A DNA stretch of 63,206 nt, filler included, from Kipferlia bialata (lineage: Eukaryota), in the NCBI GenBank assembly GCA_003568945.1. It is 5 parts of 5 records of this genome, joined end to end, with 100 filler letters (N's around TTAATTAATTAA, not from the genome) between each part and the next. Parts side by side here need not be neighbours in the genome. Positions count along the whole stretch, not along the records: positions 1 to 10,137 come from BDIP01000559.1; positions 10,238 to 18,389 come from BDIP01000560.1; positions 18,490 to 35,416 come from BDIP01000561.1; positions 35,517 to 52,430 come from BDIP01000562.1; positions 52,531 to 63,206 come from BDIP01000564.1. One strand, written 5' to 3'. The translations under genes were made by a program, and so were the position numbers. Under the pieces are notes generated by a model. It did no database searches. It saw only the letters and a program-made list of their open reading frames with translations, and was not told where the DNA came from. Below, piece by piece: positions 233 through 63,121 of this stretch. Every line of letters begins with the position of its first letter. Within the stretch, counting starts at the first letter, position 1.

Positions 233-430
233 AGTCTTCCAGGATGCCCTCAGCAACATGGACCATGTACATATATATATATAGTGATATGTAATTATAT
301 ATGTGCATGTATTTGCAATCATCATCATCTCTTAGTGTGTATGTATTGATAGTCAGGACCTTCCAGGATGCCCTCAGCAACATGGACCTGATGGACTGCT
401 GTGTCGTGATGGGTCTCAAGGGACTGACAG

Positions 431-465
<35 letters not shown>

Positions 466-3400
466 ATATGTGTATGTGGTGATTGGTCTCAAGGGACTGA
501 CAGGTATTTTACTTACGTATGTATATGCAAGTATAGTATATGATATTCGTCTCTCTCTTCATATATGAGTGTTGCATAGTGATTATTGTCTGTGTGGTCA
601 TGGGTCTCAAGGGACTTACAGGTATAGATACTGTCTCTCTCTCATACATATCAATAGTATTATATATATATATATGTATCTATATATCTACCTATGTTGT
701 CTAACATCAGGTGAAGCGAGGAGAGCCCGTATCAGACAGCTCAACCTGGACAGGTACATGCACATCGTATATATACATACGTTGCACATGGTTCAGTGGA
801 CTATTGGAGTCATAGCTATTTGCGCTTCTCTGTTTAGCCGGTACACATATTGCACATCACATGTATAGATGTAGACTATGGTAGGCTCACTCCCAGTAAC
901 ACCAACCTGAGTGTGGTCCTGGACGTGCCAGGTAAGCGTATATATATCTCTCTCTATCCTAAAGAGTAACCACACATACCCCCCCCCATATATATATATA
1001 TTATTATACATATACCTTACCCCAGACTCTGAGAGTGATGACGACAGTCCCTACATGAAGGCCCTGATGGAGAGGCTCGAGGGGTACGGGATATTGTATA
1101 GTATTCTGGATATGTAGGAGATCACATCAACTAACAGATCTCTATGTGCACTATGTTCTAGTTAACAGCCTCAATATATATATATATATATATATGAAGG
1201 CCCTGATGGTGAGGCTAGAGAAGTACGTTATATATGGTTAATTGTGATATACATATATGATATACATATTCATATATACATCAGCGTATCTATAATATGT
1301 CTAGACGTATTTTCAGTCTCAACTTGGACAGCCTTGCCTAGAGAAGCATATGTATGTATTCATGAGTGTGAATATATGAGTGTATATATATGTGTGTGTG
1401 TGTGTGTATCTGTTCTAATTCACAGCCTCAACCTGGACAGCCTTGCCAAGAGGGGCAGCATGATACCACCCTGGGACCATGTGTCACCCACAGTTAGGTA
1501 TGTGTGTATGCCACCTATATATATATGGGGACCATGTGTCACCCACAGTTAGGTATGTGTGTATGCCACCTATATATATATGTATATATACATTCATATA
1601 CATACCCACCGTGAGGTGATATAGTATTCAGTATATGTAGAGACACATACACCCTCTCAATTTCTTAATCATACGTATCCTTGGGACCACGTGTCACCCA
1701 CAATGAGGTGTGTATATATATGATATGAATGCATTTATGTATATATGATAAGTATGTATGTACACTGTGTATGTATATAATAGTCATACGTATCCTTGGG
1801 ACCATGTGTCACCCACAGTGAGGTGTGTATAAGTGCTCCATTATATATTTCTATAAATATATTAATATATGGACGGGACGTCATTCTAAATATGTGTCAC
1901 CTCTCCCCACTAGCTTTCTACTCCTCTACCCCTCAACCCGTCTCTTTCCTAGGCACAGTGATATCGCATCAGTATAAGTAGATACTCTCGTCACTAGATA
2001 CTGATACCAGGCACAGTCTAGTCATGACATTTGGATATATATGTATAAATATACAAATATGTATGTGCCTCCAGTTCCTCCCCCCCCTCAATCTCTCTAC
2101 CCCTCTCTCCCCCTAGGCACAGCCTGGTCATGTCCCGCCTGTCCCCCAGACCAGTGGCACAGGGTACGTATATACACATAAACATGCATATATATATCTA
2201 TACATATATCTACATCTATATACAGGGTTCGTAGACTGGTCATGTCCCAGACCAGAGGCACAGGGTACGCACTACATATGTATACACACACACATATATA
2301 TTCATATATATCTACATCTATATGCAGGGTACCCACATGCATACTCTTCACATCTGATATACACTCGGACTATGTCTCTAATTATTATCCTGTCAATCAA
2401 TGTATCACATATAGTGTATCTTACCTCAGCCACCACTCCAGTACCCAATGCCCAGAAGAGAGAGGGGGTGATGTCATCTGGAGATTCCATGTCTGTGGAC
2501 AGGTATGCTATTACTATATAGATATTCATATTCAGCCCCCCCCCCCCACACGCATTCTCCTTGTCTTGTCCTCAGTGTTACTTCTCTCTCTACACTCAAT
2601 TATATACATATCATGTTCACCCCAGGTACCCCAGCCCAGCAATGGACTCCCCCTCCCCCTCCAGTCCATATGACACTCAGAGTAGAGCATCCAGAACACT
2701 GAGTCCTAGGAGCTCAGTGGTGAGGTATGTTGTATATATGTATATACCAGACACCAGTCTCTGTCTTAGTCCGCTATATTGCCAACCCTAGTCTTTAGCA
2801 TTCTGACGTTCATGTATGTGTCAGTCTAGACAGTGTATCTGTAACCTTACTTGCACACCTAACTCACCCAGCCTTGCCCTGTCCATTGTCGTATACACCA
2901 CAAATATATATACTCACATATTATATACTCTTGTTAACTATCATATATGTATTGTTATTCGTATTATCGTGTATACCTCACCCAGTCTTGCCCTGTCCAT
3001 TGCAAGTGCAGCCATCGAGAGGGCCAGAGCAAGAGGTACTATCACTCATATATACCATATACAACACTATAGTGTCACTCTGGTTATAGGCACATATATA
3101 GCGTATATATATTAGTGCAACCATCGAGAGGGCCAGAGCAAGAGGTACTGTTCTACTCATATATCTACCACATACAACACCTTTGTGTCTCTCTAGTCTA
3201 GAGAGGGCCATTACAGGAGGTGATGTCTGGAGTATCACTGTATCTTTTGACACATTCTCTCTGTCATTATCATCTCAGATCAGTTACAGTGAGTCTAATA
3301 CCCAGGCTTTGTTTCTCCACTTGTGGCATCCAGTGTCGAGACACCCACAGGTGAGTGCATTATATTCACCACAGAATAGGGTCTCTATATATTGAGTTAG

Positions 3401-5087
3401 TGTCTGCTATCCTACCGCTGTGTGTATCTATTTGTGCACGAGTCTCAGTAGGTATTTATCTCACCCTCCCAGGCCTCATCTCGCCCTTCCCTGCTGACTA
3501 CTCGCCTCTCTCTGTCTCAGTGCCCCCCTACCCCATGGTAGCCTCATACCACACACCCAGGTACATTGTAGGCATTACTCTATTTGTGTATTGTCTAGGG
3601 GTATATATGGAACCTTCTGATTGTTACCATACACCCAGGTAGCATATATCTCTTACTATATGCCCATATGACCCTTAGATCTACGATTCATATTTCAGCT
3701 GCCACTATGGATAAACTATATCATATTCAAAGTAACCATATTTCAAATCTTCCTCATTCCCAGTGGCAGCGGCTTCAGACTGTCCCCCAGCTACAGTGAC
3801 AGTCAGAGTAGGGAGAGCAACGAGGGAGAGGGAGAGAGGCCCTCCAGGGATAGCACATCATCTCCCAATGAGAGGTATAGCTATGCATATACTTGTACTA
3901 GAGTCTAGTATTATAGCTGGTATGTAATATTTTGATCGTTATCTCCTTGTATTTATACATGGACTTGCAAGCATCTTCTCATCCCCAGGGAGACAGAGAC
4001 AGAGACCGGGAGGCTGGATGTGGAGACACTTTCCCCAGGTAGATCCATGTATATTCATATATATATGTATGTATGTATGTATATATATATATGTATGTAT
4101 ATTCTCGTATATGGCAGTCAGTCAGTTAGAGAGTCCTATGAGTCCTGTAGTGGGAATACACTCAGCAGTAGATGTAGTAGTATAGTTCGGTCAACCAGAG
4201 TTATCTTAACACTCCCTCACCCTGTAGGTCTCCCCTCCCCCTTCGTCCTGTCACCCATGATGGGGTACAGTCCCATCGCTGCCAGGTATTATATATATAA
4301 TATACAATGCATGTGTATATATTATACATATGCATATATATAGAAGTGTATGATATTTAGATACATTCCCCTGTGACCCATAGTGGGGTGCAGCCCCACC
4401 CTCGGTGCCAGGTATAGTACATATATCTTATACATATCTTGTATATCTTATATATTGCTGATAGTCTAGTGTATCAACTCATCGATATCTATATATGTTA
4501 CACTAGTACAGAATATGTTGCATGCCCCTCTCACTAGATATATATCTACTTGTGAATAGATGTGTGTTTATATACCCATTCTAACCCTCAGTATATCTGA
4601 GACCTTCTCACCGGGGCACCTCTATGTATATATCTGAATGTAGTATTCATTCAGTCCTTGTATATCGTTCTCATCCCAGTGTGTCTCAGACTGTCGAGGC
4701 AGTGACAGGGGGAGAGAGAGAGTCACCCACTCTTCACAGCTTTGCCACTGATAGGTACTATATGTCTATTCATACAATACCTATGATCCACTATCAGTCA
4801 TAATTTATGTATATATCCGTATGATCATAATGTTTATTCTGTGTATATACACATTATCTGGTGCCCACTCCTTCTCACCACTAGTGAGGCATACACATCC
4901 ATGAACAATTTCCTTATATAGTGAATGCATAGATCTATGCACTCTCTTTCTAACACCTCGGCCAGTACATATTTATATGTATATATATAGTATTTGAGGC
5001 TCCTTCTTACCGCTAGGGATGTACACACACCCATGCCCCTCAGCAGGCAGGGAGGGAGGAGAGAGACCCAGGTATATGCATAGACAC

Positions 5088-5126
<39 letters not shown>

Positions 5127-8100
5127 CACTATACAATATGTAGTTTCTCACTCAAGGGAGGGAGGGGAAGACCCAGGTGTACCCAGATCATATATACTAT
5201 ATATATATATATATATAATTCGACATACTATATATACAATACATGCTAGTATCACTCATACACCAGGGACAGAGGAGAGAGACCCAGGTGTACTACAGAG
5301 TACCCATACAGGACGGGGTCCCCACTCCTGCTCCCAGGTATGTCCACTATGTAAGTGGCACCCACATATATATGTATGACATGTATATAGTGTAGTACTC
5401 TTGTATACAGGATGGGGTCCCCACTCCTGCTCCCAGGTATATATAGACTATGATATATCTATATTCAGTACTATGTGATGTGTTTATGTCGCCCTGCCTC
5501 TATGTACCCATTATGCCGTCTCTCACTCCAGGTACAGGACTGGGGACGAGACCCTGCAGAGAGTAGGCGAGTGGCATTGTGATGATTCTTCCAATGCGTT
5601 GTATACATATTGCCCTGTATACACATCGGACTCCTCTATATATACACAATATATACCATGCCTATACTATATCTTCCTCTGTTCTCACACTTCCAGCACT
5701 TGCGAGTGATATTCTCTACACGACTATATATGATATATACCTATTTAGAGTGTCATTCTCACCCCAGTGTCTGCCCGGGCCAGTGTCCTCAACCAGGTGG
5801 GAGATAGGAGTAAAGACATTTATCCAGTCTTCAGTATCAGTGCATCAATGCAAATATTGCACCAGTAATAGTATATTTGGATCCGTATATATGCTACGGG
5901 TAACAGTAACAGTTACAGTACTTATCTGTATACATTTGGCATAGGCACACTGACACTAGGTTGGCCCCAGTCTGTCCAAGGTACCTGCTTTCCTTGAGGG
6001 TCTCTATCCTCTCAGGGAGCTAGGGTCCATAGAGCATGCGGGCCTACGCAGGGGTACGGGGCATATATATACACATACACCATGCTATACTTATATATAT
6101 ATATATGTATGTATGTATGTGTGTATATATATGCATGTATATCTCTCTATCTCACTCCAGGCTTCCTTATGGAGTGGGAGAAGCAGCTGATATGCCTCAG
6201 TACCCTATATATATACGTATAGTAAATACATATATATATATATATATCTCACTCCAGGCTTCCTAACAGAGTGGGAGGAGCAGCTGATGGCACTCTGCAA
6301 CCAGTGCACAGAGACCATACCCAGGTATACTACTGATACTGATAGAGATGCTGACACTGATACTTATCCTGATACATATACTGATACTAATTCTATGACT
6401 GATACTCATTCTGATTCTGATACTAATACTGATACCTATACTCATACTGATACTGATACTGATACTGATCCCTAGATGTGAGAGCACCGGGGACCCCATC
6501 CATGCAGGGTATGCTGTGGCACTGGTGCGTTGTATAATGCATTAATTATTAGGATATTAGTAAATTATAGTAATACAATTATTAATATACATCTTATGTT
6601 TATTGAGTGTTCTAATATATTGATACTGATACTTATCCGTGTGGGGTATGCTGTGGCACTGGTGCGTTAGTCTAACCCATCTCTCTCCACCAGGATATAT
6701 ATATATCATAGGCACTAGGACGCCGTCTGTCTCTGTCATCTCTCCTCTTAACCCTCCAGACTGCTGCTAGGACTGACCTCGAGGCACTGCTTAGCAGAGT
6801 GGTAGAGGCCAGATACAAGGCACCTGAGGGTAAGTTTCCAATATAATATAACATGGAAAATACATACTAAATAGGGATATTAGCAATCATCTTAGAAGAG
6901 TGATAGAGGCCAGATACAAGGCACCTGAGGGTGAGTGTAGTATACAGATACTACTTTATGAATATGCATACTATCTAGGAGTATTATTGCGACATACTCA
7001 GATATGTTTTCTAACCCTCAGGCACTGCCTCTGTGGCCAGACCCAACACTGCCAGGATGAGGTACATGTATATATATATATATACTTATTGATATATGGA
7101 TACAATATATACACTTATAGGTCTATTTCAGAAGTATACAGTTTATATAATATATACATAATTAGTGGGGCGTCAAGAATCCATGTATACCTACTGCAGC
7201 CTGTCTTTCAAGTGTCCTATTGTAGTATCTATGTAATCTGTCTGTATTTAACCCCCAGACACCTTGGCATGTCCCCCAGGGGCAGGTACACACCAAAGGG
7301 GGCAGGTGGGATCAGCAGTATAGGTATATCTATACAAATACGTATGTGCATACATATGTATTGTTTGTAATCCATTCAGTATGTGCTACACAATGAAACT
7401 CTCTTGTTGACAATCCTCTCATCCTCTAGGCCGGCGTCTCTCCTCCATGTCCACCAGGCATGTGCCACAGACAGCACAGATAGGTACATACTTCGGCATC
7501 TTATATATGTATATATATTGTGCATACATTTACTGTCTCTCCTCCATGTCCACTAGGCACAGACAAGTGTATTCATATACATATTTCTATATATATACTG
7601 TTTGTATACTGTGTATATATATACGATATATGCAATTATATAGTTTTCAACCATACATTCTTGTCGTACATGTGTGTCAACTAACCCCAGGTACCAGGTC
7701 CCACCTCACCTATGCCCAGACACCAACACAGAGGAGGTATGGTATATATACATATATATGTGTGTGTGAATATTAGCCTTGTCATTTGTGTACATCGTTC
7801 ATGCTCCTATACCATTCCATTTTACTCTTAGTACATTCAGTATCGTTATCACTCATATGCATTGTACATGCTCTCCTATAGCTTGTGGCCTCACGCCCAG
7901 GGTCACCTACACCCCAAGGCCCATCACATCCGGTAAGTATGTATATATATATATATATCACTATCATTATAGTATGTCTTGTATCTCACAGTACAATGCA
8001 TCACCTTCATACACACCAAGGCCCATCACATCCGGTGAGTTTATATGGATGTGGTATATATGCTTGTGTATAGTGTGTTGCATCTAACAAGTACTATACT

Positions 8101-8582
8101 ATATATGGAGATTCTATGACTGCTTTTTCTGGTGCCTGCGACAATATTTACTATTCTCAATATACAGACATGTAAATGGTGTATTTCTATTCTTTTCCAC
8201 TAATCTCACGATCACAGTACGGCCAGAGATGTATGTACATATTTGTATACAACCACCATACAATCATTCTTGGAGTATTTGCTGAGGATACATGCGAGTA
8301 TAATATATAGTATTATACTCAACACTCACGTTTAGAGTACGGCCAGAGGAGAGCACAAAAGTAGTACACTAGATATATATATATATGGTACACATTAAAT
8401 TACTCATTACATACACTCACTCTTAGAGTACGGCCAGAGGAGAGCCTATATGTCAGTGTATGCTAGATATGATATATAGTATTGTACTCTTCTCACGTTT
8501 AGAGTACGGCCAGAGGAGAGACACCATGAGTAGTGTCACATGGCAGACAAGACGTGCCCAGCACACCAGCAGCTGGGTGTGA
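233..8582 (+). CDS. 5'-partial multi-exon hypothetical Ser/Pro/Thr/Arg-rich protein
   Basis: GC-rich exons between GT..CTNAC-YAG introns splice in frame where checked: FQDALSNMDLMDCCVVMGLKGLT ... LNLDSLAKRGSMIPPWDHVSPTVR ... FLTEWEEQLMALCNQCTETIPR ... EYGQRRDTMSSVTWQTRRAQHTSSWV*. TGA at 8580-8582. No family recognised; not every internal junction was verified. Confidence 0.75.
6330..6468 (+). repeat. degenerate (ATACTG)n hexamer microsatellite in an intron
   Basis: gatactgatactgat... repeats directly visible. They explain the spurious DTDT/ISIS ORFs. Confidence 0.85.
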
Positions 8583-10304: not shown

Positions 10305-11317
10305 GAGAAGGTTGTCGAGAGGGCCGGCCAGCACCAGATCATCATCTTCGTGCACAGCAGGTACGGGACTCTCTCTCTCTCTCTTTCTTTCTCTATGTCC
10401 ATCTCTCTCTCTCTCCTCTTTGCTAATACCAGGAAGGAGACTGTCCGTTCCGCCAAGCTCATCAGAGACGGCCTCATGGAGCAGGTATCTAACTTACTAA
10501 TAGTGTATTGATATTTGTAAGTGTATGAATATTCCGAATCCAGTCTCCCCTCCCGCTCTCTCACCCCCAGGGCCTCATTGGCAAGCTGGTCCCCGAGAGC
10601 GGTGCCACAGTCAGGGTCCTCCAGGTACATGTACTTCGTACTCATATGTGTATTGTCACTACGTATAGTCTTCAATATACGCCCCCTGATGCCCAGGACT
10701 CTGTGGCCGAGGCCCAGTCCAACGACCTTAAGGACCTCCTCCCACATGGAGTGGCTGTCCACAATGCAGGTGTGTGGTGTATGTATGTATATATATATGG
10801 ATAGCGTGTTCCATTCAGTAGTGCGTTACAGCGAGTTATGTCTAATCCGTAGGAATGACCCGTTCCGACAGACACCTCATCGAGAGGCTCTTTGCCCAGA
10901 GGCACATCCAGGTATAGTCTCTCTCTCTCTCTCTCTCTGTATTATTCAAGTATAATATACTCACCCCAGATCCTTGTGTCCACAGCCACCCTTGCCTGGG
11001 GTGTCAACCTCCCTGCCCACACAGTTATCATCAAGGGCACAGACGTGTACTCATCTGAGATGGGTACGTGGTGATCATATATGATTGAGTCCTATATAAT
11101 AGTAACTATGTATACCTTACCCTCAGGTGGCTGGGTCGACCTTGGTTTCATGGATGTCCTTCAGATGATTGGTCGTGCCGGAAGGCCCCAGTTCGATACT
11201 AGTGGAGAGGGTACGTGTATACTATCTCTCTCTATGTTTTTTGTGTACCCCTTATTCTTTCACCCCCCTGGAATCATCAACACCAAGGAGAGTGCCGTGT
11301 CGTACCTCTGTATATTC

Positions 11318-11350
<33 letters not shown>

Positions 11351-13082
11351 ACACCCTTACCCTCACCCCCTAAGTATCATCATCACCAAGGAGAGTGCCA
11401 TGTCGTATCTCTGTATATTCTCTCTCTCTCTCTCTCTCTCTCTACACCCTTATGTTCACCCCAGGTATCATCATCACCAAGGAGAGTGCCATGTCGTACT
11501 ACCTGTCCATCTTCAACGAGCAGCTGCCAGTGGAGTCCAGGATGATCGGCCGGTACGTATAATTACCATCCAAAGTGAATAATAATAGTGCATTACTTGG
11601 CTTCATTGTTAGTGTGTAAATATCATTCCATCTCTTACCTCCAGTCTGTGCGAGGCCCTCAATGCCGAGATTGTCCTAGGCACTGTGGCAGATGTCAGAG
11701 AGGCAGTCATCTGGCTCAGATACACATACCTCTACTCCAGGTACACAATACACTGTTCTAATCCTATTTCCCCCATGTGGTTCTGATGTCCATATTCGTC
11801 TAGCCCCTCACTGTCAGGATGATGACCGACTCCTCCAACGCTGCCGCAGACAGGTATGTGGCATATGAATATGTCAAGTGAACTGGAAGATAACTTCTAT
11901 AACGTATAATTGTATTCCCTCACCCCCCAGGTACGGCGTATCCCAGTCCATGCGTGTTAAGTCTCTCTCTATACGTAGTCTTGTGTATTATGAAGTACAT
12001 ATTACCTACCCTCAGGTACGGTGTGTCCCAGTCCATGCGTGTTGAGGACAAGGGCCTGGTCAGATACAGAAAGGCACTCATCGTGGCAGCTGCCACAGAG
12101 CTCGCCAAGCAGGGTACGTATGTATGTATATGTATACACACACGAGTGTATATACATATAGTATCATCCTAACCCCCCAGGCCTTGCCTCCTTCGATGTG
12201 GCCACCCAGCGCCTCTCCCCCCTGCCCCTGGGTAGGATTGCAGCCAAGTTCTACATCACCCCACAGACAGCCAACAGATACAGCAGGTACTGTACCATCT
12301 ACCCTCACTGTGTTGTTCTAATACTTGTGCCCATCTCACCCCCCAGGCTTCTCCGCCCTGACCTCGAGTCCCCCACCGAGCTCCTGTCTGTCTTTGCAGC
12401 AGCAGACGAGTTTGCAGCAAGTGAGTGACAGTAACAGTACTCTCTCTATATATATATGTGTGTGTGTAGTAGAATTGTATTTGTATAACAGGGATCTCTC
12501 TCTCTTTCTCTTGGTTACCCCTCACCCCCAGTCAACCTCCGTTCTGAGGAGAAGGGTGAGCTGCGCCGTGTCATTGAGCGTGTCCCCATTCCCATCGCAG
12601 AGGAGGACACATCCCCACACGCAAAGATCATCGCTCTCCTGCAGGTAGATAGCAGACCTCCCTGAATATTGATTTTTGTACTCCATCCCCTCACCCCCAG
12701 GTGTTCATCTCCCGCCTCAACCTTGACGGCTTTGCCATGGTGGCTGACATGGTGTACATTGTGCAGAGCGCACAGAGGTATGTATTGCTTAGATATACAT
12801 GTATGTATGATACGTATCGCGCTTTTTCAATTGATATAGATTATGCAATTGATACAGTGCCATAGTATGATCTAAGTATGAACTAACCCCCCAGACTGAT
12901 GCGTGCTCTGTTTAAGATTGCCCCTCTATTATTCAAGTAACTATGCAATGGATATTGACTATATAATATCATTGTCTTACTCTAGACTGATGCGTGCTCT
13001 GTTTGAGATTGCCCTTGCCAAGAAGATGGCATACCCCACCCTGGCCCTGCTCAAGCTCAGCCAGCAGTGCCAGCACAGGTAT

Positions 13083-13122
<40 letters not shown>

Positions 13123-16100
13123 GTATATTGTTTCTATATATCTGACCATAGGCTCTGGGAGGCCCAGACCCCCCTTAGACAGTTCAAGGACGAGGTGTCC
13201 CCAGACCTGCTCAGGAGGCTGGACTCTAAGAACATCCCCTGGCTCAGGTACAATTATCCCTGGATATATATCTAAATATATATGTTCTCACTATGTGTAG
13301 TTACTATCCTGCTCACCCACTCACTCTCCAGATACCTTGCCCTCTCTGAGGAGCACGTCGGAGACATTGTCAGAGAGCCCCAGCAGGGAGAGTACCTCCA
13401 CAACCTCATCCACTCCGTCCCAAGGTACACATACGCACAAATTCACGTGTTTGTTTTTATGTAATCCCCCTTACCCCCCTAGGTTTGAGCTTGAGGCCTC
13501 TGTGCAGCCTGTGACCTCCTCCCTCCTGGCCGTGACTGTCAACATCGAGCCACTCTTCAGGTATATTAATCAGAGCTTCTCTCTCAATATGTGTGTATGA
13601 ATACATGTGTATGTATCTATACACCCCCCTCACTATTAGGTGGCAGAAGAGGTTCCACGGGTTCATCCTGCCAGTCCACATCATGGCTGTGTCATCCACA
13701 GGACACCAGGTATATATATATATACATATGTATATAAATATATATATATATTCTTTCCTCGTCATACCTCTCTCCTCCCCCCTCACCTGAAGGTCCTGCA
13801 CTCTGAGATGCTGCGTCTCACCCGTGCCTCCTGCAAGGTGGCACACACAGTGGACTTCCTCGTGTCCCTCCAGGTATATATAGCTGCACACATAATATAT
13901 TTATGTATTCATTTATTGTGTTGTATGATGTCCCTCACCCCAGGGCTCCAAGTCCTCTGCCCCCCCTAGCCACGTGTACATCCACGCAGTGGCAGACGGC
14001 TGGCTCGGATCACACACAAAGGTATATTGATATACATTTGCACAATCATATTCATGACGTTTCCAGATTTCTTCTTTTCTCTCTCTCTGTGTCTCTACTC
14101 ACTCCCAGGTGTCTGTGATGCTGGGCGACTCTGTCACCATGCCCTCCAAGTTCCCCATGCCCTCTGCTCTGTCCGACGAGGCACCAGGTATACACCCACA
14201 CTATATCGCACCCCTAGTTATTTGTGGATATGTATAATTATATGGTTATATGTGTATATACCCTGACCCCCAGTGCCTGTGCCTGAGGACCTCAGGGAGG
14301 TCATCCACAAGGACAAGAGGACACACGCCAAGGACAAGATCGATGGTGAGTGTATGTGTACATGTATATAGATATAGATACTATTAGTATGCGTACAAAT
14401 ATGAATATTCTTATATAGTTGGTGTGTGTGTTCTCACCCCAGTGGCTGACGAGGTCATCAACGCCTACCTCCCACCCTCCTCCCTGGTGACTGTCGGCAC
14501 AGAGACTACACTCTCTCCCACAATGTCTGAGGTATAGTAGTGTATACATATTAGTATGAATGTTTGGATGTATTCCTTCTTGCTCATTACCAGGTCTTTG
14601 ATGCCCTCTGCATGGCCCCACATCCATATCGTATATTGTATATATAGTGTAGTGTAGTGGAGTATATTGTAATAATCTCTTACCCCCTAGGCCTTTGATG
14701 CCATCTACATGGCCCCCAACCTTAACTCTCTCTCTCTCTATGAAGTCATAAAGTATCTGTCCATTCCTTCTCCTCATTTCCAATGCCAGGCCTTCGACGC
14801 CATCTACATGGCCCCCAACCTGCCCTCTGTCGGCTACTTTGGCCCAGACAATGCCACCACTGTGCTCAACCTCGCCCTGCTCAGGCACTTCAACAGCCAC
14901 GAGCTCGAGAGGTATGGATACATTGTATATAATATGTATTGTATATATTACGTGTATCTCTACATGGCACTGCTCAGGCACTTCAACAGTCACGAGTTGG
15001 AGAGGTACGCATATAGTAGAGTATATATTGATATTGATCAGTTATACTCTCTTTCCTTCCCCTATTTCCCTCTCTGACGTCCAGGCAGGGTGACCGTTCC
15101 ACCGTCATCTACCTCACTGCATCCCAGGTATGGAGTGTTCACATTCACAAACACTTGCAGTAATTCTTGCATGTTATATATCATGAGTCTTACATAGTAT
15201 GTATATATTATTAATGTATATGTCTCACCCTCAGGATGCTGCCGAGGCCAGGTTCAGGTCCCTGTCCGTGCTGGCAGAGAAGGTATATACTATACATACA
15301 TGTATACATTCTGGTGTTATAAACACAATATAGAAAGTGTATATATGTATATATATATATATATATGTATATATACCCACCCCAGGTTGCCCAGGTGACA
15401 GACAATGCCACCCACTGTGCACCCAATGTGGTGCTGCTCACAGGGGACGTGGTGGCTGACACTAGGTACAGTGTATATATTGATAGATGTATATCCATAG
15501 ATTATTTCATATTTGTGCAGGTAGTATTATTCTGTCTCTTCCTTCCCTCACCCCCTAGGCTCATCTCTGGGTCTGATGTTGTGGCTGTCTGTGGACCCAG
15601 GGAGTACGACGTGCTCTGCAGAAGGTATAGAATACATATATGATCCATGTATTCTATGTCATCTCTTATTGTTGAGTATGTATATTGATAGTATTAATGA
15701 TGACGGCCTCTACATTCATTACCCTCACCCCCAGGTGGCAGTCCTCCAAGGCCGTGCGTAACATTGGCCTCCTCCTGGTCGAGGATGTGCATCTGGTGGG
15801 GGCACCCAACGGAGACGTGCTCGAGACAGCACTCTCTAGGACTAGGTATGTATATATATATATCAGTATGTATATATATAGTGTATATACATACTCCACG
15901 GAGACGTGCTCGAGACAGCCCTGTCTAGGACAAGGTATGGAGTATTACATACATGTCTATCACTTAGAATGAGTTGAATCGTGTATGCTTACCCCCTCAG
16001 GTACCTGTCCCAGCAGCTTGCCGCTGCTGCCAAGGAGAACCCCCAGGCAGACTGTGCAGTGGCCACTATCAGGTATGGTTGTATATATATGTATGTATGT

Positions 16101-18268
16101 ATGTATTTATAGAGAGAGAGAGAGAGAGAGAGTGAGATGAACTCTGGCTTGCTGTACTGTGGCCACTATCAGGTATATAGTATATCAACATGCATATACA
16201 GTATAACATATGCATACTTATATATATAGATGAAAAGGTACTCTGGCTAGACTGTGCTGTGGCCACAATCAGGTATGGATATATATATAAGTAGTGGTAC
16301 GAGAATACCCATGAATTAGTATTCATTTGTATCCCCTCACCCCCAGGATGGTTGTGGCCGGTGTCCCCGTGGCCAATGCCCACGACATTGCCAACTGGCT
16401 AGGTGCGCCTCGCTATCTCACTGTACACTGTCGCTATTTGTATATATTTGTGTATCTCCCTTTCCTTCCTTCCAGCCCCCAGACATCAGGACCAAGTCCA
16501 AGCTATCATATGTATATATGTACCCTTACCCCCCAGGCATCAGGACCAAGTCCAAGCTATCATATGTATATTTGTACCCTTACCCCCTAGGCATCAGGAC
16601 CAAGTCCAAGGACAGGAAGAAGGCTGCCCTCTTTGCATTCCCCCCAGACAAGAGGATGCAGGAGACAATCACAAAGTGAGTGGGTATTCAGAGTCTCTCT
16701 CTCTATGTGTATTATTGTATTGAATAATGGTGTATCTCCTCACTCCAGCCCCATCCTCCCAGGCAGTCTGGCTGCCAGGCTCTCGTCCCTGTCAAGGGCT
16801 GTGTTCAAGGTACAGTGCTGATATGTATATATATTGGTATGGCAATATATTGATATCGTCAGTGTGTTTATAATATGTCTATTATGTCTGTCTCACCCTC
16901 CAGGAGACTGTGATTGTGACCAAGCGCAGCAAGAGGACCAAGGAGACCACCAACCAGAGGGCCCTGGTCCTGGTGCCCAACATGACTCAGGTACTGGATA
17001 TGTATATATATATATATAGTGTATATTCCACTGTCAAGGGTAGTGTGTTAGGACTACTATATACAACTATCTCACCCCCAGGGCCGTTCTCTGATTGAGG
17101 ACATGCTGGAGCTCTCCCTGTCCTACCTGAGTGAGGCAGACAGGGACAGCAGCAAGCTGTACTGCGGATGGGAGGTATTTACATATGATATATATTTTAC
17201 ATATTGTATATATGTGTATTGTATATATATGTATATATACACTCACCCCCAGGATGCCAAGGTTGATGCCGCCCTCTCCGCTGCCAATGTCAGCAGGGAC
17301 CACCCAGAGCTCAAGTACCTCTCCCAGGGTGCTGTCACTATCACACCAGCCACAGGTACACAGAGTTCTCTCTCTCTCTCTCTCTCTCTGTCTATATATT
17401 TATATATATATGTATATATGTCTCTATATTCTCTTCATGTCGTTGACCCCCAGACCTGTCTCTGGTCGAGGTCATTCTGGAGCTCTACTCCCTCGGGGCA
17501 TTCAAGCTGCTCGTGGTTCCCATGGAGGTATGGAGTATCACTTGCACGCATTCTGACACTAACAGAATTTTGTATCTTTCTATCATGTTTGGCAAGCGGT
17601 TCCTGTCTCTCTTGGCAATACAGTTTGAATACCTTTCCTTCCACTTAGCTTGTTACGTCCCATACATTTCTAAACTCCAGGACAAGCGCCTCCTGCCCTC
17701 CCTGGACACTGCCCAGTGCCGGGCAGACATTGTGGTCATCCACGACGCAAGGGTCTTCGATGCCCAGGTGGGTTCAATATGTACCTCACAACCACATATA
17801 TATATTGAGTAGTTATATGTCAATTTCATGTTGTCTTCTGACCCTTTAGGAGCAGAGGTTTGTCCCCCTGCGTGTGGCTGACATCCTGGACATCAGGCGG
17901 AGGACACTCGCCGGTGGAAGGTACATGATATATTAATATATATAGAAGGGCATGCTCTCACTCTTCTACTTGCCCGCTCTCTCTCTCCCTCACCTCCAGG
18001 TTCATCATCCACTGCGACCAGTCCCGTATCGAGTACTACAACAGATTCCTCTTCTCCCCCCTGCCCATCGAGTCCAGCCTCGCATACTCCGTGGTACGGA
18101 CTCTATGTGTCTATAGCCCCGTCAAACGACACATTTCATATATATCCTTTTCTCTCCTTCATTCCTCACCCTTCAGTCTGAGTTCCTGAACGAGGCCATT
18201 GCCAACAAGAGTGTCTCATGCCTCAGCGATGCACTCAACCACCTGTCCTGGACACTGCTCTACCAGAG
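10305..18268 (+). CDS. BRR2: U5 snRNP 200-kDa Ski2-like RNA helicase Brr2, internal fragment (RecA2, WH and Sec63 of the N-cassette, plus most of the C-cassette), about 40 exons
   Basis: Spliced translation: [198 protein letters not shown]. The ERVPIP and FAM-ADMVY motifs favour Brr2 over ASCC3. Confidence 0.93.
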
Positions 18269-19956: not shown

Positions 19957-19990
<34 letters not shown>

Positions 19991-42566: not shown

Positions 42567-42599
<33 letters not shown>

Positions 42600-44898: not shown

Positions 44899-44936
<38 letters not shown>

Positions 44937-45210: not shown

Positions 45211-45241
<31 letters not shown>

Positions 45242-48200: not shown

Positions 48201-48678
48201 GACTCCCGGCAGGTATAGATTAATTTTTTCTACGCGATTACATTTTTACGCGAGTACATGTTCGGTGGGCTCCCGGCAGGTATAGGTTCTAAGTCCTACA
48301 CGATTGTACTTCTTACGCGATTACTCACTCTATAGGCACTGAAGAGCGTGCCGGTCTCCCCCTACCCCCCTTTGTGCACGGGTGGTCTGTGGGCAATGAC
48401 CCATGGCTGCCCAAGTGGGGGCAGTTCCTACAACTTACTAGGTACATATATATAGTGTACAGTTATAGTGACTGTCCATGTATGACATCTTGAGTGTATT
48501 AGTATATTCCATAATTGTCTAGGAGTCAAAATGCATGTATACTCTGCTCATCATCTCCCCCCATAGTATTATGTATAGTGATATAGTAATATATAGTAGT
48601 AGTAATAGTAATGTATAGTAGTGTGTCTCTCTCACACCAGGACCCACTCTGCGGACCAGACATCTTTCTCTCTCTCTA

Positions 48679-48715
<37 letters not shown>

Positions 48716-51700
48716 ATATTTCCATATTTATTATTCCATATCTAATGCCAGGACCCACTCCGCCGACCAGAACGTGCTGATCAAGCAGTGGCTAGGTACG
48801 TAGAGATGTAGATAGACAACTATGTATAGATACAGTATTTATATACATTTGACTGTATATATGTGTGCAATACTAACCTCAGGACTGTGCAAGACATAGT
48901 ATGTATAGGATACCTTAGTATATATATATGTATAGATATAACCCCAAGGGCTGTTCAAGAAAGAGGCACCCACTCTACCAGTATCCGAATCTTCTCAAAT
49001 GTATTAGTATTATATATATTGTATAATTATGGTGTATGTATATATCTCACCCCAAGGTCTGTTCAAGAAGAAGGAGGCCCCCATCCTGAGGATGTTATTA
49101 CTATATATTGAATGCTATATAGTATATATGAACTATATATATAGTATATATACACTGTATGTATATAGTGTATATATATATTACTGACCCTAGGTCTGTT
49201 CAAGAAGAAGGAGGCCTGCCATCCTCAGGATGTTATTACTATATATATATATATATATATATATGTCTTCTTATGTATCTAACTACACCTTATATAGTGT
49301 ATATATACGTATATATATACATTAGTGTCTCACCCAGGCCTGTTCAAGAAGAAGGAGGCCCCCATCCTCAGGATGTTCATAGCAACACTGGCCTTCTACC
49401 ACTACTACGACGCACCAGGTACAATCCTTATATCTACGCGATGATCACTTCATACACGGTACTCTTTAACACTACGACGCACCAGGTACCACCCGTATAT
49501 CTACGCGATGGTATATTTCTTACACGATTCCATTTTGTGTTCATAATATTCAACATGATACCAGGCTGCTTTGGACCCAACCTCCCCTCTAGGGCCAAGC
49601 TAGTGGCTGCCAGTAGAGCACTGGACAACAGCTACATGAATGGCATAGAGCATGCATACATAGTGATGCTCAGTGACCCCAGGTACTTCTAGAGATAGTG
49701 TACACATACACACACACCCTTACCTCTATATATATGCGGTATATATATATACATGAATGGCATAGAGCATGCATACATTGTGAGGCTGAGTGACCCCAGG
49801 TGGGAGACATTAGGCTCTGATATACGAATGACCTTACCTATACTTGATAAAGCTATATTACTAGATATGATTGTATCTAACTCTCCAGACAGGCACCCGT
49901 GTGGAACACGTCCGAGCCAGACTTCAAGTACCTCAGACGGAACCACAACGTGATGCAGGTATATATGTATCTCTCTCTCTCTCTCTCTCTTCATCCAATA
50001 TCTCTGAGAACTGAAAACACATTGTTTATGTCTATACCCTTACTCACTCACTCTCTACACCCCTAGTATCTAGGAACTGTACACTGTGCCTGGTCACGTT
50101 CTCTCTCCCTCTCTCTCTCTTTTTCTCTCTCTCTCTCTCTCTCTCTCTACACCCTTAATATCCAGGAACTGTACACTGTGCCTGGCCAGGTGGTGGATGC
50201 AGACGATGATGAGCAGAGGAGCCACAGGTAATATATATATATATATATATATACTACAATAGATATATAGATATAGGTATGTAGATATATAGATATAGGT
50301 ATATATATATATATGTAGTCTCTACACTATATATATTATGTGGATGCAGACGATGATGAGCAGAGGAGCCACAGGTGAGTACATGTATTATTATTTATAC
50401 TANNNNNNNNNNNAGCAGAGGAGCCACAGGTGAGTACATGTATTATTATTTATACTACAATAGATATATATATAAAGGTATATACATATATATATGTAGT
50501 CCCTACACTATATATATTATGTGGATGCGGACGATGATGAGCAGAGGAGCCACAGGTGTGTATGTACATAGTATGAATGGTATATATATATGTATATTGA
50601 GAGAGAGAGAGGGAGAGAGAGACGATGATGAGCAGAGGAGCCACAGGTATCTATGCACCGAGTCCAGACATCATATATAGTGATTGCTTAATATGTATTA
50701 TGTGTATCTCTCTCCCCTATCCCTGCTCACCCCAGGTTCTTCCGTCAGCACAAGAACGCTCTCTCTCTCTCTCTCTCATTATATATGTATATGAATATTC
50801 AGACACCTCCCTATCCATCCTCACCCCAGGTTCTTCCGCACAGAATCATTCTCTATCTGTTTATTACTAAATGCTCATTACTGTTTAACTATTTCTCTTA
50901 CCCCAGGTTCTTCCGTCAGGCCATCGCCCTGTGCATCATATACGGACTGGGGGTCAACAGGTATATGCTGTAGTTTACACATGCATAGACATATATATAT
51001 ATAGTGTATATCTCTGGAGGGTATCTCTTCAATTTACTATTGCCCTGTGCATCATATACGGACTGGGGGTCAACAGGTATATATGCACTATATACTATAT
51101 GGTGATATGTACTGAGAGTATATACATACTGATACTTGTTCATATTATTATTGCCCTGTGCATCATATACGGACTGGGGGTGAACAGGTATAAGATAAGA
51201 TGTAGTAAGTATACTATACGAAGTAACTATACTATTGCCCTGTGCATCATATACGGACTGGGGGTCAACAGGTATAGGCTGTATTCATAGTCTCTTGTAT
51301 TGTTATGTATATATATGTGTGTGTATGTATATATATATATATCTTACCCCCTAGGAGGGGGGCCCACTGGTCCAGGACCATGATTCAATAACTAAGATGT
51401 CATCAGTATACATTATTATATATATACTTGTATATACTACTATACTACTATCATTCTATACCACTAGGAGTGGTTTGGTTGTTATATATATATGTAGATC
51501 TATATATGACACTAGGAGCGGGGCCCACTGGTCCAGGACCATGATTGAGAAGTACATCGACCTCAAGGGGTGCTTCCTCATCGGTATGGATAAGTCTATC
51601 AATATATATATGTATGTATGTGTATATATATACATATATAGTACATCGACCTCAAGGGTGCTTCCTCATCGGTAAGGACATCAATCTCTCTCTCTCTCTC

Positions 51701-52113
51701 AAACTGTCCCACTGTTTGTCTCACTCATTTCATTGTTATTGTGTGAATCTCTCTATGTATACCTATCTTACCCCTAGGCCATGCGTGGAACAGTCCAGTT
51801 GGTAACGGCATCCACATCGACTGTGGAATGAAGGTACAGTATACTGAGTTGTACCTCTATACCCTTTCCAATACTCTAGGTGGACTTCTATTGCTGTGTG
51901 TTGTTACTATAGTATTCTTCATTCTCACTCTCAGGATGCCAAGTTCTCCTCCACCGTGACAGCTGAGGCAATGAGTGTCAGATCACTGGGGCCATTGGCC
52001 ACAAGGTGAGTTTGCATGAATATGGTATGTATCTATACTACACTTTATGTATCTATGTGTTTGTACTGAGGCCATGAGTGTCAGAGAACTGGTGCCACTG
52101 GCTACTAGGTGAG

Positions 52114-56699: not shown

Positions 56700-57452
56700 A
56701 CGTCCTTGGCGGTAGGAGACACCTTGGTGTACTTCCTCTTGGGCCTGGGGGTGGGTAGGGTACATATACCAACTCATGCCTATACATATATATATACTTG
56801 AGGTGGGTGGGTGGGTGAGAATTTACACCAAACACCATACACAGGAATTAGAATATATATACAGTGAACATATACACACGTCAACCCATCCATACACTCC
56901 CATGTGCATACCTGTGCACCACTGTGCCTGACAGGGTGGTGATAGATAGATATATGTACATATATATATACATATATACATCCTCCCATACCTGTGCACC
57001 GTAGTGCCTGGCAGGGTGGTCATGGAGGCTGGGTCTGGGGTGCCGCCCCCCACCCTCACAAACACAGAGATGTGGGCCGAGTCGAAGTTGTGTCTGGGGT
57101 GGGCTAGGGATAGAGATCACATACTACAGGTGTCCATGTGTGTATGCCAACACCCTATCCCCATCCGCACCTTGATATTGTGTAGCCCATGCCGTTGTCA
57201 CTGACGTACTCGTGTCTGGACACAAGCATGCCTGGGGGGAGAGACGCACAGGGGGATATACAAGGATCCGCAAAACAACTGATACTGATACAAAGTATGC
57301 ACATTCACTTGGTGTGTGAGTCCTGTCTGAAACAGCATTCAGTATCAGCATCAGTGTACACACACCAATGCACATGTACCCATACCTGGTGTGCGTGACT
57401 CCTGCCTGAATGCTATCTGCTTAAGCACAATGTCTGAGAGAGATCTGGGGGT

Positions 57453-57501
<49 letters not shown>

Positions 57502-58805
57502 AATTATCTATAAATACACACATGTACTCACTCTTTCAGACGCTCACTAGGTAAATAATTCACACATATTACACGATTCCCCCTACCCTAGCGTGGGTGC
57601 CTGCTTGTGGCCGATGGATCTGTTGGTCAGAACATGGATCTCATCAGGGTACTGGGGTCAGGGGGGACGGGGGTTGTGTGAAATACATTAGAGACATGAT
57701 CAGAGAGAGACAACACTCATGGCTCTACATCACCCCACCCACCTCGTATGTGACCCCGCCATACTCCGCTGGGAAGTATGCCTGCACCCTCAATGCTAGG
57801 TTGGCCACAGACAGAGAGTCCTTGGCCATGGTGAAGTACAGCCTCTCAAGGCACTTCCTCTGGCTGGGCTTGACATCGAGGCACACAGTGTACTCAGAGG
57901 CTGAGGTGGCCACGTACGCATCCACCTGGTCCTCGCCCTCAGGCCCTGTCTCTCTCTCCCTGGACCCCCTGGGCACCCTGACCCTGGGTATGCCGTCTGT
58001 AGGCACCGTAGGCACTGTGGGGTGGGCATGGGGGTTGGTGGGCAGGAGGGGGGGCTGGGATAGGGGGCCCTGGGTCCTCTCGCCCTCTCTCTCGCCCTGC
58101 CCCTTCTGTGTCTGTGCCAGGGTGTACCCCTCTCCTGAGTACATGGTGCCTGAGAGGGGGGGTCTCTCTGTCCCCGTGGCGTTAGGGCCCATCCAGCCTG
58201 TGCCCTGGGGGGGTGCATCAGAGGCAGGCCTGTCAGTGCGGGTACCCATCTCGAGGGTCTGCATCATGCGCCTGTTCCTGTCTCTCTCTCTCTCTCTCTC
58301 CCTCTCCCTCTGCTCCTCTAGCCCACCCACACCCTCCATGCCGTCTATGCTGGATGAGCCCATACCGCTGGGGGGGATGGAGGGGGGCGAGGCCACGGCT
58401 GTCTGGTGGGTGACCCCTGCCACCCCATGGTGCATGGACAGGTCGAGAGGGGAGGGCAGGGGGAGACCGGCTGGGGGTGGGTATATGCATGATTAGTGTA
58501 CGGCATGAAGTAATATCGTGTATAACAATATATATGCTACCATTCTATCTATCTATATACACAAATAATACCCAGGCCCTACCCATGCTGTCCATAGGCA
58601 CTGAGGGCACTCCCTGGCTACTGGCCTGGGTACTGGCCTGGGTACTGGCCTGGTGCTGGTGCTGGGGGGAGGGCACATAGACACATGGGACACGGGTATA
58701 TATGTGAAAGGGAGAAACATATCCTAGCATAGCCGAGCCTAGACTCACATATAGAAGTGTCAGTTCCTACCCCCCCCCCCCCTGTTCCTTGAGTGCCTGG
58801 GCCCT

Positions 58806-58842
<37 letters not shown>

Positions 58843-59842
58843 CCTTGAGAGCCTGTGGTCCTATGGGCATGATGAGACATAGGTGGGCAGAGGTGAACAC
58901 GTCCTTGATGTTCAGACGGGTCTGGGGGTGAGGGGGTATCAGGGACACATACATGAGGATATATTTATATATATACACTGTATATGTATGCCACCCCACT
59001 CACCCCCTCCTGGTCTATCCTGTAGGGTGCCCTCTGGGTCAAAGGGCCATGGGACGAGGCAGAGTCCACGAGCTGGGGGTGAGGGAGTGGTGGGTGGGTT
59101 AAGTATCGGTACGACATGTATGTATATGGGTATATGTCTCGGGGTATCTGTATTGGAATGGTACACTATACATTGCATTGACAGGCCACCCACCTTGGCC
59201 AGCTGGACCTCTGAGAATGAGTCGAGCACCCTAGCAAAGCGATGCCCACAGGTGCGGGAGGTCAGGACCTTGAGGAGACCCGGGGTCTGGGGTGAGTGTG
59301 CGGTCAGACAGCCTCATATGATACTCAGTAAAGAAACCTATGAATATACACTACCATACACGCCTCATACTTCCTGTCAATGTATATGTATACATACACA
59401 TATAGGTGTACCTTGTATGTCCTGTCGGCATAGGTCAGAGGGAACTTGGCTGGGGGTGGGTGGGGTGGGGAGGGGGAGATGTACAGGGTATAGTTATAGT
59501 GACTGTCAACCACGACAGTGTAGAGACTGCATCATGCCGTACCCTCCACCATGGCTGCGATGTCTCTGCTGTTCAGTTGGGTCTGCCTCACAGGCAGGTA
59601 CATGCGCTGCAGCAGCTTCCGCTCACTGGGCTTGATGTCGACGGAGATCAGGTACTCATGGGGGTCCAGAGGCTGGGGGTGAGAATGGGTGGCGGTACAC
59701 ACACATACTTACAACTCTTGGTGGATTGGGGGTGACGTGCATATATATTCGAAATATCACACATACCAATAGCTAGGGCGAGCCTACTTAACCATGCAAC
59801 AACCTAAGAGAGACACCACATAATGCTCATCGGGAGACAAAA

Positions 59843-60642: not shown

Positions 60643-61395
60643 CTAGTCCATAGCAACATCGGCCTCCTCGTCCCTCTTCTCGGCAACGGCAGAGTCGGAG
60701 AACATGTCTAGGGTGAGACAGAGAGAGACAGAGAGAGACAGAGAGAGAGAGAGAGAGTGTGTGTGTGTACTCACATACATTTATATATATATAGAGAGAG
60801 AGAGTACTCACCCTTTCCAGCTATGGGGGCAGCGTCCAGGTTGGTACGGCCATGGGCAACACCTAAGAGTGAGTGTAATCGACACAGTTATACTATATAT
60901 ATATCATATTCTCTTATACACAAGAATATGATATATATATATATATATATGTAGAGAGAGAGAGAGAGAGAGAGATGTCTGTACCTGGGGCATTGGGCAG
61001 AGAGCGTAACCGCTCAGTCACCATACGGACCTTGTCCTCAATCTGGTGGTTAAAAGGGGTATAGGGGAAGAGAGACAGAAGGAGAGAGAGAGATATATAA
61101 GGACCTTGTCCTCAATCTGAAGGTGAATAGGGGGGTAAGGGGGATGGGGAGGGGGGAGAAAGAAAGAGAGAGAGAGAGCATAGATATACCTGTCTATCTG
61201 TGTTCATGTTCTGGCAGTTACTGGGTAGCACCGAAAGGGTGTAGTCGGGGCCAAAGAACTCATAGAACCCATTGTAGGGGATCTCCTCGGAGAGCTGGCA
61301 GTGAGTGCGATACAGATAATACACATATATAATTACGTTACCAACATATAGTAGTCAAAGATAGTAGTCAAACTGTGGGAGAGGGTGTGAGCGAC

Positions 61396-61432
<37 letters not shown>

Positions 61433-63121
61433 CTGGGTGCCAGCAAGGAGGGCGGTCTCGTAGGTCCAGCACTTGGACACATTCCTGGGGTGTAAGATGC
61501 GTGCAGATACGTATACATCTAAAGAGAAAGATATATATAGAGAGAGTAACACGACAAAGACTTGCTGATGACAATAGTGTGGCGTGAGTACAATGCTATT
61601 TACAACTGTCATCACTAGTTATTGGTAGTATATACATATATATACCTTGGAGTGTACCCTCCCCCTCCCAGGAACAGGGTGGGCAGGCCATAGGAGGCAA
61701 CGGTCTAGAGGGTGAGACGGGATAAGGGTATGGTGATTATATGGGTAAAAGAGGCGAGGGGGGTGGAGAGAGGGAGACAGATAGAGAGAGAGAAAGAGGG
61801 AGAGAGAGGGTGGGGAGGCCATAGGAGGCAACGGTCTAGAGGGTGAGAGGTATATACATAGAGAGAGAGAGGGGGGGGGGGGTATGTGGGTGAAACTGAC
61901 ATGGCGAAAAAGGGGAGGAACACTGGCATATATACATGTCAGTAACAAATAGATGTATCTGTAACAAACCTGCACACAGTCCCCGTGCCCGTTGAGGGTC
62001 AGGTTGAAGGAGCCAAGTCTGGGGTGAGAGGCATCAGTATATATAGAGGTATATGAATGATATGTAACATGGAAGAGGACAACAACAGAACATGTATGAA
62101 TATATCGAGTTACCATTCTCCACCTCAATCTCTGTGCAATTATACTATCACGGGTGACGTTATGATACGTACATAGTATTGAAATAACGAATTACGATAT
62201 AACATGCCCCGTACCTGTCATTGGCCAGGGAGTATATCACTGACGGCACATATATGCATATATATATATATTTACATATATATATATAGTATATCTGAGA
62301 GTGCCTCGTACCTGTCATTGGCCAGAGAGTCAGCACCACACTGCATCACAATGGCAGAGGGTCTGGGGGTGAGACTATAGTAAATGTGTATATGTAGAGA
62401 GAGAGAGAGAGAGAGAGAACAGCATCACAATGGCAGAGGGCCTGGGGGTGAGACATATAGTAAATGTGTAGAGAGAGAGAGAGAGAGAGTCAGCACCACA
62501 CTGCATCACAATGGCAGAGGGCCTGGGGGTGAGGAATTCATAAAGGGAGCAGAGAGAGAGAGAGAGAACATAACCACACTGCATCACAATGGCAGAGGGT
62601 CTGGGGGTGAGATACACGCTAAGGGTGTAGAGAGAGAGAGAGAGAGACGACAGCACCGCACTGCATCACAATGGCAGAGGGTCTGGGAGTGAGATTCACA
62701 TTAAGGGTGTAGAGAGAGAGAGAGAGAGGACATCACTACGCTGCATCACAAATGCATCACAAATGCATGAGGTATATATTGACTTGTATTATATTTTACC
62801 TGTAGTGGTCTATGCATGACTGATGGAAGACTGTCCATCTATATATATATATATATATATATACATCCATATATATCGTACCTGTAGTGGTCTATGCATG
62901 ACTGGAGGATGGGCTTGAACATACCAACAAATGTATTCTACATAAATATATACAAATATATAAATACGTACTACCCATGTATTAACGTATGCAAGACTAT
63001 CTATCTATATAATACCTGTAGTGGTCTATGCATGACTGGAGGATGGGCTTGAACATCCTGCCGTATGTCTCGTCATCCACTCCATCGTCTACATCCACAT
63101 TGACGGAGTAGCCATAGCCAC
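60643..63121 (-). CDS. RPD3: class I histone deacetylase (Rpd3/HDAC1-3 type), 3' half, 9 exons in the window
   Basis: GGYGYSVNVDVDDGVDDETYGRMFKPILQSCIDHYR|PSAIVMQCGADSLANDR|LGSFNLTLNGHGDCVQ|TVASYGLPTLFLGGGGYTPR|NVSKCWTYETALLAGTQ|LSEEIPYNGFYEFFGPDYTLSVLPSNCQNMNTDRQ|IEDKVRMVTERLRSLPNAPG..DVAMD*. TAG at 60645-60643. Confidence 0.95.

Follow-up and report, generated by a model that had tools for sequence, protein, structure and literature searches.

The 63,206-nt window analysed here consists of five contigs of the unicellular metamonad Kipferlia bialata joined by N linkers, and all copy counts below refer to it. Its introns hold many short, partial copies of the exons beside them, each of which spans an exon-intron junction: donor-side copies repeat an exon end together with its GT and lie downstream of the complete exon, while acceptor-side copies repeat AG and exon start and lie upstream. 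These copies are real tandem duplicates of splice junctions, and they are omitted by the one transcript that was tested.

Junction copies in the introns of five contigs

Four genes were modelled from database proteins (P0001-P0004), mapped letter for letter onto chains of GT..AG exons blind to the copies, with the outermost exons adjusted by hand. Three of these proteins carry NCBI names (KIPB_003075, KIPB_003078, KIPB_003076) and are K. bialata proteins matching single window exons at 100%; the fourth, without a name, was likewise matched at 100% by a single exon. These models replaced a self-trained gene finder, which had called copies as exons. Two minus-strand genes were built by hand and excluded from pooled estimates of the nonsynonymous to synonymous rate ratio (dN/dS). 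The genes and the main arrays are as follows.

358..8579, plus strand: contig 1 gene (P0004 model), 29 exons, no Pfam family; 20 copies in 12 of 28 introns
233..264, plus strand: acceptor-side copy of exon ~357-430, upstream of the first modelled exon; read directly and outside the counted set
10305..18387, plus strand: Brr2-like helicase gene on contig 2 (P0001, KIPB_003075) with Sec63, SNRNP200 wHTH and Helicase_C; 12 copies in 8 of 43 introns
11271..11407, plus strand: two acceptor copies before exon 11465, AG lost in both, spacers alignable; skipped by RNA joint 11209>11464
11931..11961, plus strand: acceptor copy, branch point-AG intact, 2 synonymous and 1 nonsynonymous differences; skipped by RNA joint 11850>12013
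14594..14722, plus strand: two acceptor copies before exon 14790, AG intact
14967..15004, plus strand: donor copy, 3 synonymous and 0 nonsynonymous differences; transcript equals the complete exon
15898..15934, plus strand: donor copy, 3 synonymous and 0 nonsynonymous differences; transcript equals the complete exon
16152..16556, plus strand: two donor and two acceptor copies around exon 16347-16402
18718..32668, plus strand: contig 3 gene model (P0003, KIPB_003076), PH_SPT16 near its end, may fuse genes; 33 copies in 13 of 37 introns
18977..19564, plus strand: array of six donor copies with 0 to 11 synonymous differences each and four-gamete conflicts
20457..21385, plus strand: four acceptor and four donor copies around exon 20821-20906
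26272..26426, plus strand: two donor copies, the one at 26277-26321 with 5 synonymous and 0 nonsynonymous differences
28221..28529, plus strand: four acceptor copies before exon 28606
35821..52005, plus strand: contig 4 gene (P0002, KIPB_003078), no Pfam family; 69 copies in 32 of 44 introns
38332..38613, plus strand: three donor copies; with the real exon end included, 6 of 10 site pairs have all four gametes
41116..41438, plus strand: three donor copies, 41116-41163 with 4 synonymous and 0 nonsynonymous differences; GT lost in the last copy
42197..42525, plus strand: two donor copies, 9 synonymous differences each
43399..43714, plus strand: four donor copies with a common far breakpoint and different intron starts
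45868..46264, plus strand: one donor copy (6 synonymous codons, 0 nonsynonymous), then three acceptor copies, in one intron
46843..47759, plus strand: largest array, 7 donor copies and one acceptor copy in a 1,096-nt intron
56700..59672, minus strand: second gene of contig 5, hand model with an open frame; 1 called copy in 11 introns
60648..63121, minus strand: putative class I histone deacetylase-like gene, family name from motifs, hand model with an open frame; 9 copies in 8 introns
62682-62419 and 62922-62800, minus strand, within the previous gene: 4 acceptor copies and 2 donor copies, respectively

The scan was anchored at junctions and blind to codons; exons of other introns served as null, and at the score threshold of 11 this null gave 0 matches in about 4,900 trials. 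We found 134 copies in 65 of the 152 introns (about four in ten) of the four database-modelled genes. Of the copies in the 124 introns of the three genes P0001-P0003, 66 are donor-side (34 introns) and 45-50 acceptor-side (33-34 introns), against 0-1 matches of the wrong polarity. Contig 1 added 2 weak wrong-polarity matches, and the two hand-modelled minus-strand genes 10 copies in 19 introns and no match of wrong polarity. The original prediction of strictly polarised arrays on all five contigs and both strands is therefore borne out, as is its range of one to seven copies per array, with copy lengths of 11-63 nt. Near-absolute polarity is expected: whenever a junction is duplicated in tandem, the complete exon ends up on one side, and what stays in the intron is a partial copy. 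A copy bears a single splice site and covers a median of 38% and a maximum of 81% of its exon, and donor copies precede acceptor copies in 16 of 16 introns that hold both. Array sizes are overdispersed (mean 0.44, variance 0.88). Near the end of contig 3 (34390-35131), junction copies also lie on the flanks of exons that belong to a gene on the minus strand.

Copy density is regional, ranging from copy-free runs of about ten introns (26635-28156 and 57231-59672) to 1.5 per intron in the contig 4 gene. The spacers are nearly intron-sized: their median is 76 nt on the donor side (minimum 40) and 70 nt on the acceptor side (minimum 34), against a median of 89 nt for introns without copies. Few copies are very short, which together with the spacer sizes suggests a length constraint from splicing or repair. 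The far ends had been described as fading into TA-rich DNA; the far flank is only slightly AT-richer than introns at large (69% vs 62%), and whether an intron has copies is not predicted by the TA density of its core (p=0.72).

An assembly artefact, in which haplotypes or amplification chimeras were stitched in tandem, would be suggested by the fragmented short-read contigs and by an N gap inside one array. However, Logan contigs of a DNA run (X1) cross exon, spacer and copy on contig 2 without difference (13761-15331, 15384-16072, 11469-12435, 12474-13072 and 16144-16513), at an even depth of 418-450 and without bubbles. The read evidence covers contig 2 only and both runs used, X1 and the transcript run X2, are assembled contigs in which levels and rare forms are invisible; X1 may itself be the source of the assembled DNA, so that its independence is not assured. 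With the arrays crossed intact in this way, an artefact is highly improbable.

Selection, splice signals and the transcript

The exon parts of the copies differ from the complete exons mainly at synonymous positions. After removal of one copy split by an N gap (114 to 113; 134 to 133), the 133 remaining copies showed 240 synonymous and 95 nonsynonymous differences (dN/dS 0.118), and bootstrapping with one copy per array gave 0.135 (0.095-0.19, 84 arrays). A CpG effect as the cause of the bias was rejected, as dN/dS was 0.139 with CpG sites removed. Differences were found at 2.9% of 0-fold and 21.2% of 4-fold degenerate sites. The six synonymous/nonsynonymous hand counts made beforehand (3/0, 3/0, 5/0, 4/0, 9/0 and 6/0) were reproduced exactly, and the minus-strand hand-modelled set had 7 synonymous and 6 nonsynonymous differences (ratio 0.26).

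Such a bias could in principle come from selection on the working exon alone, with copies dead from birth. This would be an ordinary process, and the changes common to all copies of an array against the exon (20 synonymous, 1 nonsynonymous) agree with it. Dead copies predict a dN/dS of at least 0.5, rather than about 1 as originally assumed, because silent changes accumulate on both branches; the spectrum-conditioned estimate for the three genes pooled was 0.117, and 0.5 was rejected with p=8e-31. Changes private to one copy, for which a dead copy predicts 1, had a dN/dS of 0.22-0.26 (confidence interval 0.13-0.41). Moreover, the splice signals of dead copies should decay alongside the intron side, yet they persist. 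Death from birth is thus rejected in the pooled window and we regard it as very improbable; to account for the synonymous bias, the lineages of the copies themselves must have been under purifying selection.

Distal copies, noted beforehand as carrying nonsynonymous changes, are not richer in them: dN/dS showed no trend across ranks (0.12 at rank 1, 0.075 at rank 2, 0.13-0.14 at rank 3 and beyond). Silent divergence is about twofold higher near the junction (91/227 vs 53/234, p=0.0008), and a predicted excess of nonsynonymous change at the far end was rejected (pN 0.025 at the far end vs 0.032 at the near end). Silent changes are symmetric in direction (94 GC>AT vs 90 AT>GC) and in codon usage (107 to the commoner codon vs 99 to the rarer), while nonsynonymous changes lean towards GC>AT (46 vs 25), as if a short phase of decay lay on top of allelic difference. 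Some copies are deeply diverged, such as the one at 41583 with 9 synonymous and 5 nonsynonymous differences and the one at 37104 with a TCA/AGT serine switch.

The GT or AG is intact in 123 of the 133 copies. Exon-side identity is about 0.9, dropping to 0.45 at donor positions +3..+12 (null 0.35) and to 0.52 just upstream of the AG on the acceptor side (null 0.45). Despite 6.3 differences in 14 nt, acceptor copies score 11.0 bits against 11.6 for the real sites, where random change would give -5.2, and 31 of 48 outscore their own real site; donor copies are weaker than the real ones (4.6 vs 6.1 bits), with a random-change null of -0.4. The spacers had been described as unalignable, which holds for two thirds of the copies but not for the 43 of 133 whose intron flank can be aligned to the real one. 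Flanks of copies are alignable to each other in 26% of 86 pairs, and even among copies identical to the exon over at least 25 nt, 9 of 12 have flanks not significantly like the real one. Near-intact splice signals and coding bias beside a largely unrelated intron side suggest that both junctions worked through most of the divergence, and a decay of 3-4% against a silent divergence of 25% indicates that a copy has probably been idle only briefly.

Working-grade splice signals and the low dN/dS of private changes might also mean that copies are directly used and directly selected, whether through regulated swapping of DNA or through splicing of a non-canonical kind, in certain cells or at a life stage. 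The transcript of the Brr2-like gene speaks against this. In X2, identified as spliced by its GT..AG joints, joints skip the acceptor copies and the pieces match complete exons with 0 other letters. In 7 of 7 intervals the gaps of the transcript are those of the model without copies, so that all 12 of the 12 copies of this gene are omitted, and the outermost intron sites are used at 8 of 8 copy-bearing introns; the use in mRNA that had been considered was thus not seen in the one gene tested, although contigs drop rare forms. Splicing at copy sites would keep the frame in 42 of 133 cases, as by chance, which rejects frame-keeping use, and 17 of 104 would stay open. A DNA form lacking copy and spacer was not found among the X1 joints listed, contigs again dropping rare forms. 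Recursive splicing was rejected too, with exon-initial GT in 7 of 35 introns with acceptor copies and 16 of 89 without. Overall, direct use appears improbable. Exon definition would predict just this use of the outermost sites where inner ones are equally strong.

Origin of the copies

Since the copies keep the protein code and the splice signals almost intact, they were likely working pieces of other alleles recently, each the working junction of a very different allele. Among the explanations considered, capture from divergent alleles, which the original prediction had listed third, fits best, and junction-spanning duplication as the origin is supported. In its full form, to which we give about even chances, the copies are leftovers of homologous repair against a diverged allele that was finished by end-joining, and they are tolerated through exon definition. 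Close to the end of an exon, a break would be extended on another allele, where exons alone remain homologous, and synthesis would pass through the junction into the intron of that allele. The new strand would then fail to anneal and be end-joined at microhomology, placing two junctions in tandem, one of which would be retained by the complete exon while the other becomes the copy. Existing copies would seed further additions and would probably be deleted again by single-strand annealing, so that most copies would be young. The spliceosome would pair the sites nearest across the exon, and therefore the outermost intron sites would be used.

Parts of this route have precedents in the available text of the sources: failed synthesis-dependent strand annealing (SDSA) finished by polymerase theta-mediated end-joining yields tandem duplications in Caenorhabditis elegans (PMC8654963), and metamonads are described as lacking non-homologous end-joining and Fornicata as lacking Rad51A, using Dmc1 paralogues instead (PMC8516963). 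At the far ends of the copies there is a slight and indirect sign of microhomology, a continuation of dinucleotide repeats (0.66 vs 0.34 nt, p=0.0002). A toy model of capture with quick deletion gave dN/dS of 0.12-0.25 with 87-98% intact sites and, if the junction was made a hybrid, also the near-to-far gradient of silent change.

Recombination among copies is seen, as four-gamete conflicts occur in both of the two arrays with more than one informative site (11 arrays examined). This supports part of the predicted cycling by recombination or conversion, and minisatellite-type turnover within a single haplotype, suggested also for the amphioxus arrays discussed below, would cycle copies through the working position. 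Besides these conflicts, it is favoured by far breakpoints shared within arrays, far flanks more similar within arrays than between them, overdispersed array sizes and the 43 alignable flanks. As a sole cause, however, it does not reach the observed dN/dS of 0.12: toy models gave 0.7-0.96 with at most 60% intact sites, another gave about 0.6, and a population model of unequal crossover gave 0.30-0.80 (single runs) with the wrong gradient, i.e. more silent change at the far end, in 5 of 6. Furthermore, if turnover is fast, arrays of 1-2 copies ought to have lost the 25% divergence at silent sites. We therefore think that turnover of this kind is an unlikely explanation, if a slightly better one than the next.

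The templates could also have been non-allelic, such as diverged copies of whole genes that stem from an earlier hybrid or polyploid state. This would explain the same selection signal and also the deeply diverged copies at 41583 and 37104. Yet no second gene copy of at least 90% identity was found over the Brr2-like gene in the run contigs, several different versions occur per array, beyond what two parents give, and the low decay implies a continuing supply. This origin is doubtful. Slightly less credible than this, and a little more so than direct use, is a maintained genome-wide reserve of exchangeable exon ends, in which repair would swap copies into the working position so frequently that selection would keep their code and signals.

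Several results weigh against capture from diverged alleles followed by end-joining. Divergence on the intron side far exceeds that at silent sites, which calls for an additional cause; exon divergence is uncorrelated with flank similarity (rho 0.04-0.09), and dN/dS is equally low for copies with alignable and unalignable flanks (0.13 vs 0.11), so that there is no clean class of plain self-duplicates. The far breakpoint is shared by 55% within arrays vs 17% between them, which independent captures would not yield unless breakpoints recur or amplification followed. For the Brr2-like gene alone a dN/dS of 0.5 was not rejected (p=0.05-0.07), the gradient of silent divergence is significant for donors only (acceptors p=0.13), and one clonal run gave 0.30 with intact sites. 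With slow turnover, the capture model itself gave 0.43-0.49; it was run with 3 seeds and N=400, and since diversity and rates were chosen by the analyst it is a consistency check. A second allele did not appear in two metagenome scans (by motif, and for P0002 with 54 pattern hits, 0 confirmed), which are uninformative either way, nor did X1 list other letters or indels over 8 kb of contig 2. The allele-repair step is thus one that we infer.

Known systems and meaning

The architecture had been thought undescribed, which is wrong, as its layout is that of the amphioxus "mirages" in Adh3, the globins BflGb6/9, TnC and PGBD5 (PMC3087553, PMC3902484). As far as these accounts are available, both systems have tandem units of similar size across exon-intron boundaries, at both 5' and 3' boundaries, of which many but not all keep AG or GT, and splicing is undisturbed (in Kipferlia for one gene, in contigs). 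In contrast, mirages are described as minisatellites at few loci, 81-100% alike and in concerted evolution, whereas the Kipferlia copies occupy 65 of 152 introns with two thirds unalignable on the intron side; in these two thirds, the likeness of whole units that marks mirages is therefore missing. The available text of PMC3087553 does not contain the word "synonymous", while the exon parts in Kipferlia show purifying selection at the protein level. The host also differs, being a unicellular metamonad with introns of about 90 nt rather than amphioxus.

Duplications from failed SDSA and polymerase theta in C. elegans helq-1 and brc-1 resemble the copies in their head-to-tail order and overlap at the lower size range, and they have microhomology at the new junction, of which the copies may show the slight, indirect sign given above. 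From what is given of them, however, they are identical copies from the sister chromatid, with a median of about 1 kb, in mutants (PMC8654963). Those of Kipferlia show allele-like differences in units of about 100 bp, placed on splice junctions, in a wild organism. Local duplication including splice signals is likewise shared with intron gain by internal tandem duplication (Rogers model; Gao and Lynch 2009, as cited in the available part of PMC3087553). Unlike in that model, no new intron arises in the counted Kipferlia cases, where the copy is absorbed by an existing intron. Arrays of coding-conserved variants beside an expressed copy are also known from Dscam-type mutually exclusive exons and from pilS or vlsE silent cassettes. 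Mutually exclusive exons have a whole exon with both sites per variant; the Kipferlia copies are partial and single-sited, conserve the protein and lie in housekeeping genes.

In the literature searched, with subscription papers outside its coverage, there was no account of these copies in Kipferlia and none of protein-level selection on mirages; the available text of PMC5874029, which gives 124,912 introns for K. bialata, has no occurrence of "duplicat" or "exon". Within that literature, the density, the protist host with short introns and the purifying selection on both copies' lineages are new. Our verdict is that the copies are a variant of mirages bearing the mark of recent function: real, dense and under-explained.

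The copies mislead gene prediction and assembly. Contigs 2 and 4 terminate inside apparent acceptor-copy arrays (18342-18389; 52160-52430), and the annotated last exon of P0001, which extends into a CT-repeat spacer, is probably a copy and not a real exon. At 37559-37766 and 5017-5337 the database models have an exon end and a next exon start that encode a repeated peptide, which might be a copy turned exon, i.e. an intron gain as modelled for mirages, or a copy-induced annotation error. The P0003 model has a GC-AG intron at 25639-25640, and the donor copies at 37423 and 21726 likewise end in GC. Introns of unrelated genes share a recurrent motif, (CT)n-CTACACCCYT, in 12 of 12 cases on the sense strand shortly upstream of an acceptor (11347, 11440, 42594, 45245, 48093, 50053, 50145, 52164, 52255 and 52330 on the plus strand; 62714 and 62632 on the minus strand); it could serve as a signal for splicing or be a small element that has been copied from intron to intron. 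On the minus strand, a frame of about 1,160 codons (52531-56029) has no introns; rich in Ser/Thr/Val, internally repetitive and truncated by the contig end, it resembles a surface protein and is exceptional in this intron-dense genome.

If the copies are such a maintained reserve, K. bialata would continually replace its splice junctions from alleles stored in its own introns. If instead capture from diverged alleles is true, a single genome would record the allelic diversity of its population (about 25% at silent sites) and hold evidence of allele exchange in a free-living fornicate. It would further offer a testable mechanism for mirages, which in amphioxus were said to lack an explanation, and a way for introns to exchange their sequence without changing their position. 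Exon definition would then operate in a protist whose introns measure 90 nt and whose spliceosome is reduced; as far as the sources are available, 87 of 174 proteins and no snRNA (small nuclear RNA) candidates are reported for K. bialata (PMC6679479), while intron definition is reported to predominate in protists, and the highest fraction of cassette exons given is that of amphioxus (PMC2397502). The density of 134 copies in 152 introns, if extended to the 124,912 introns given in PMC5874029 as far as available, would amount to about 100,000 copies, which would suffice to measure splice-site choice and repair outcomes from sequence.

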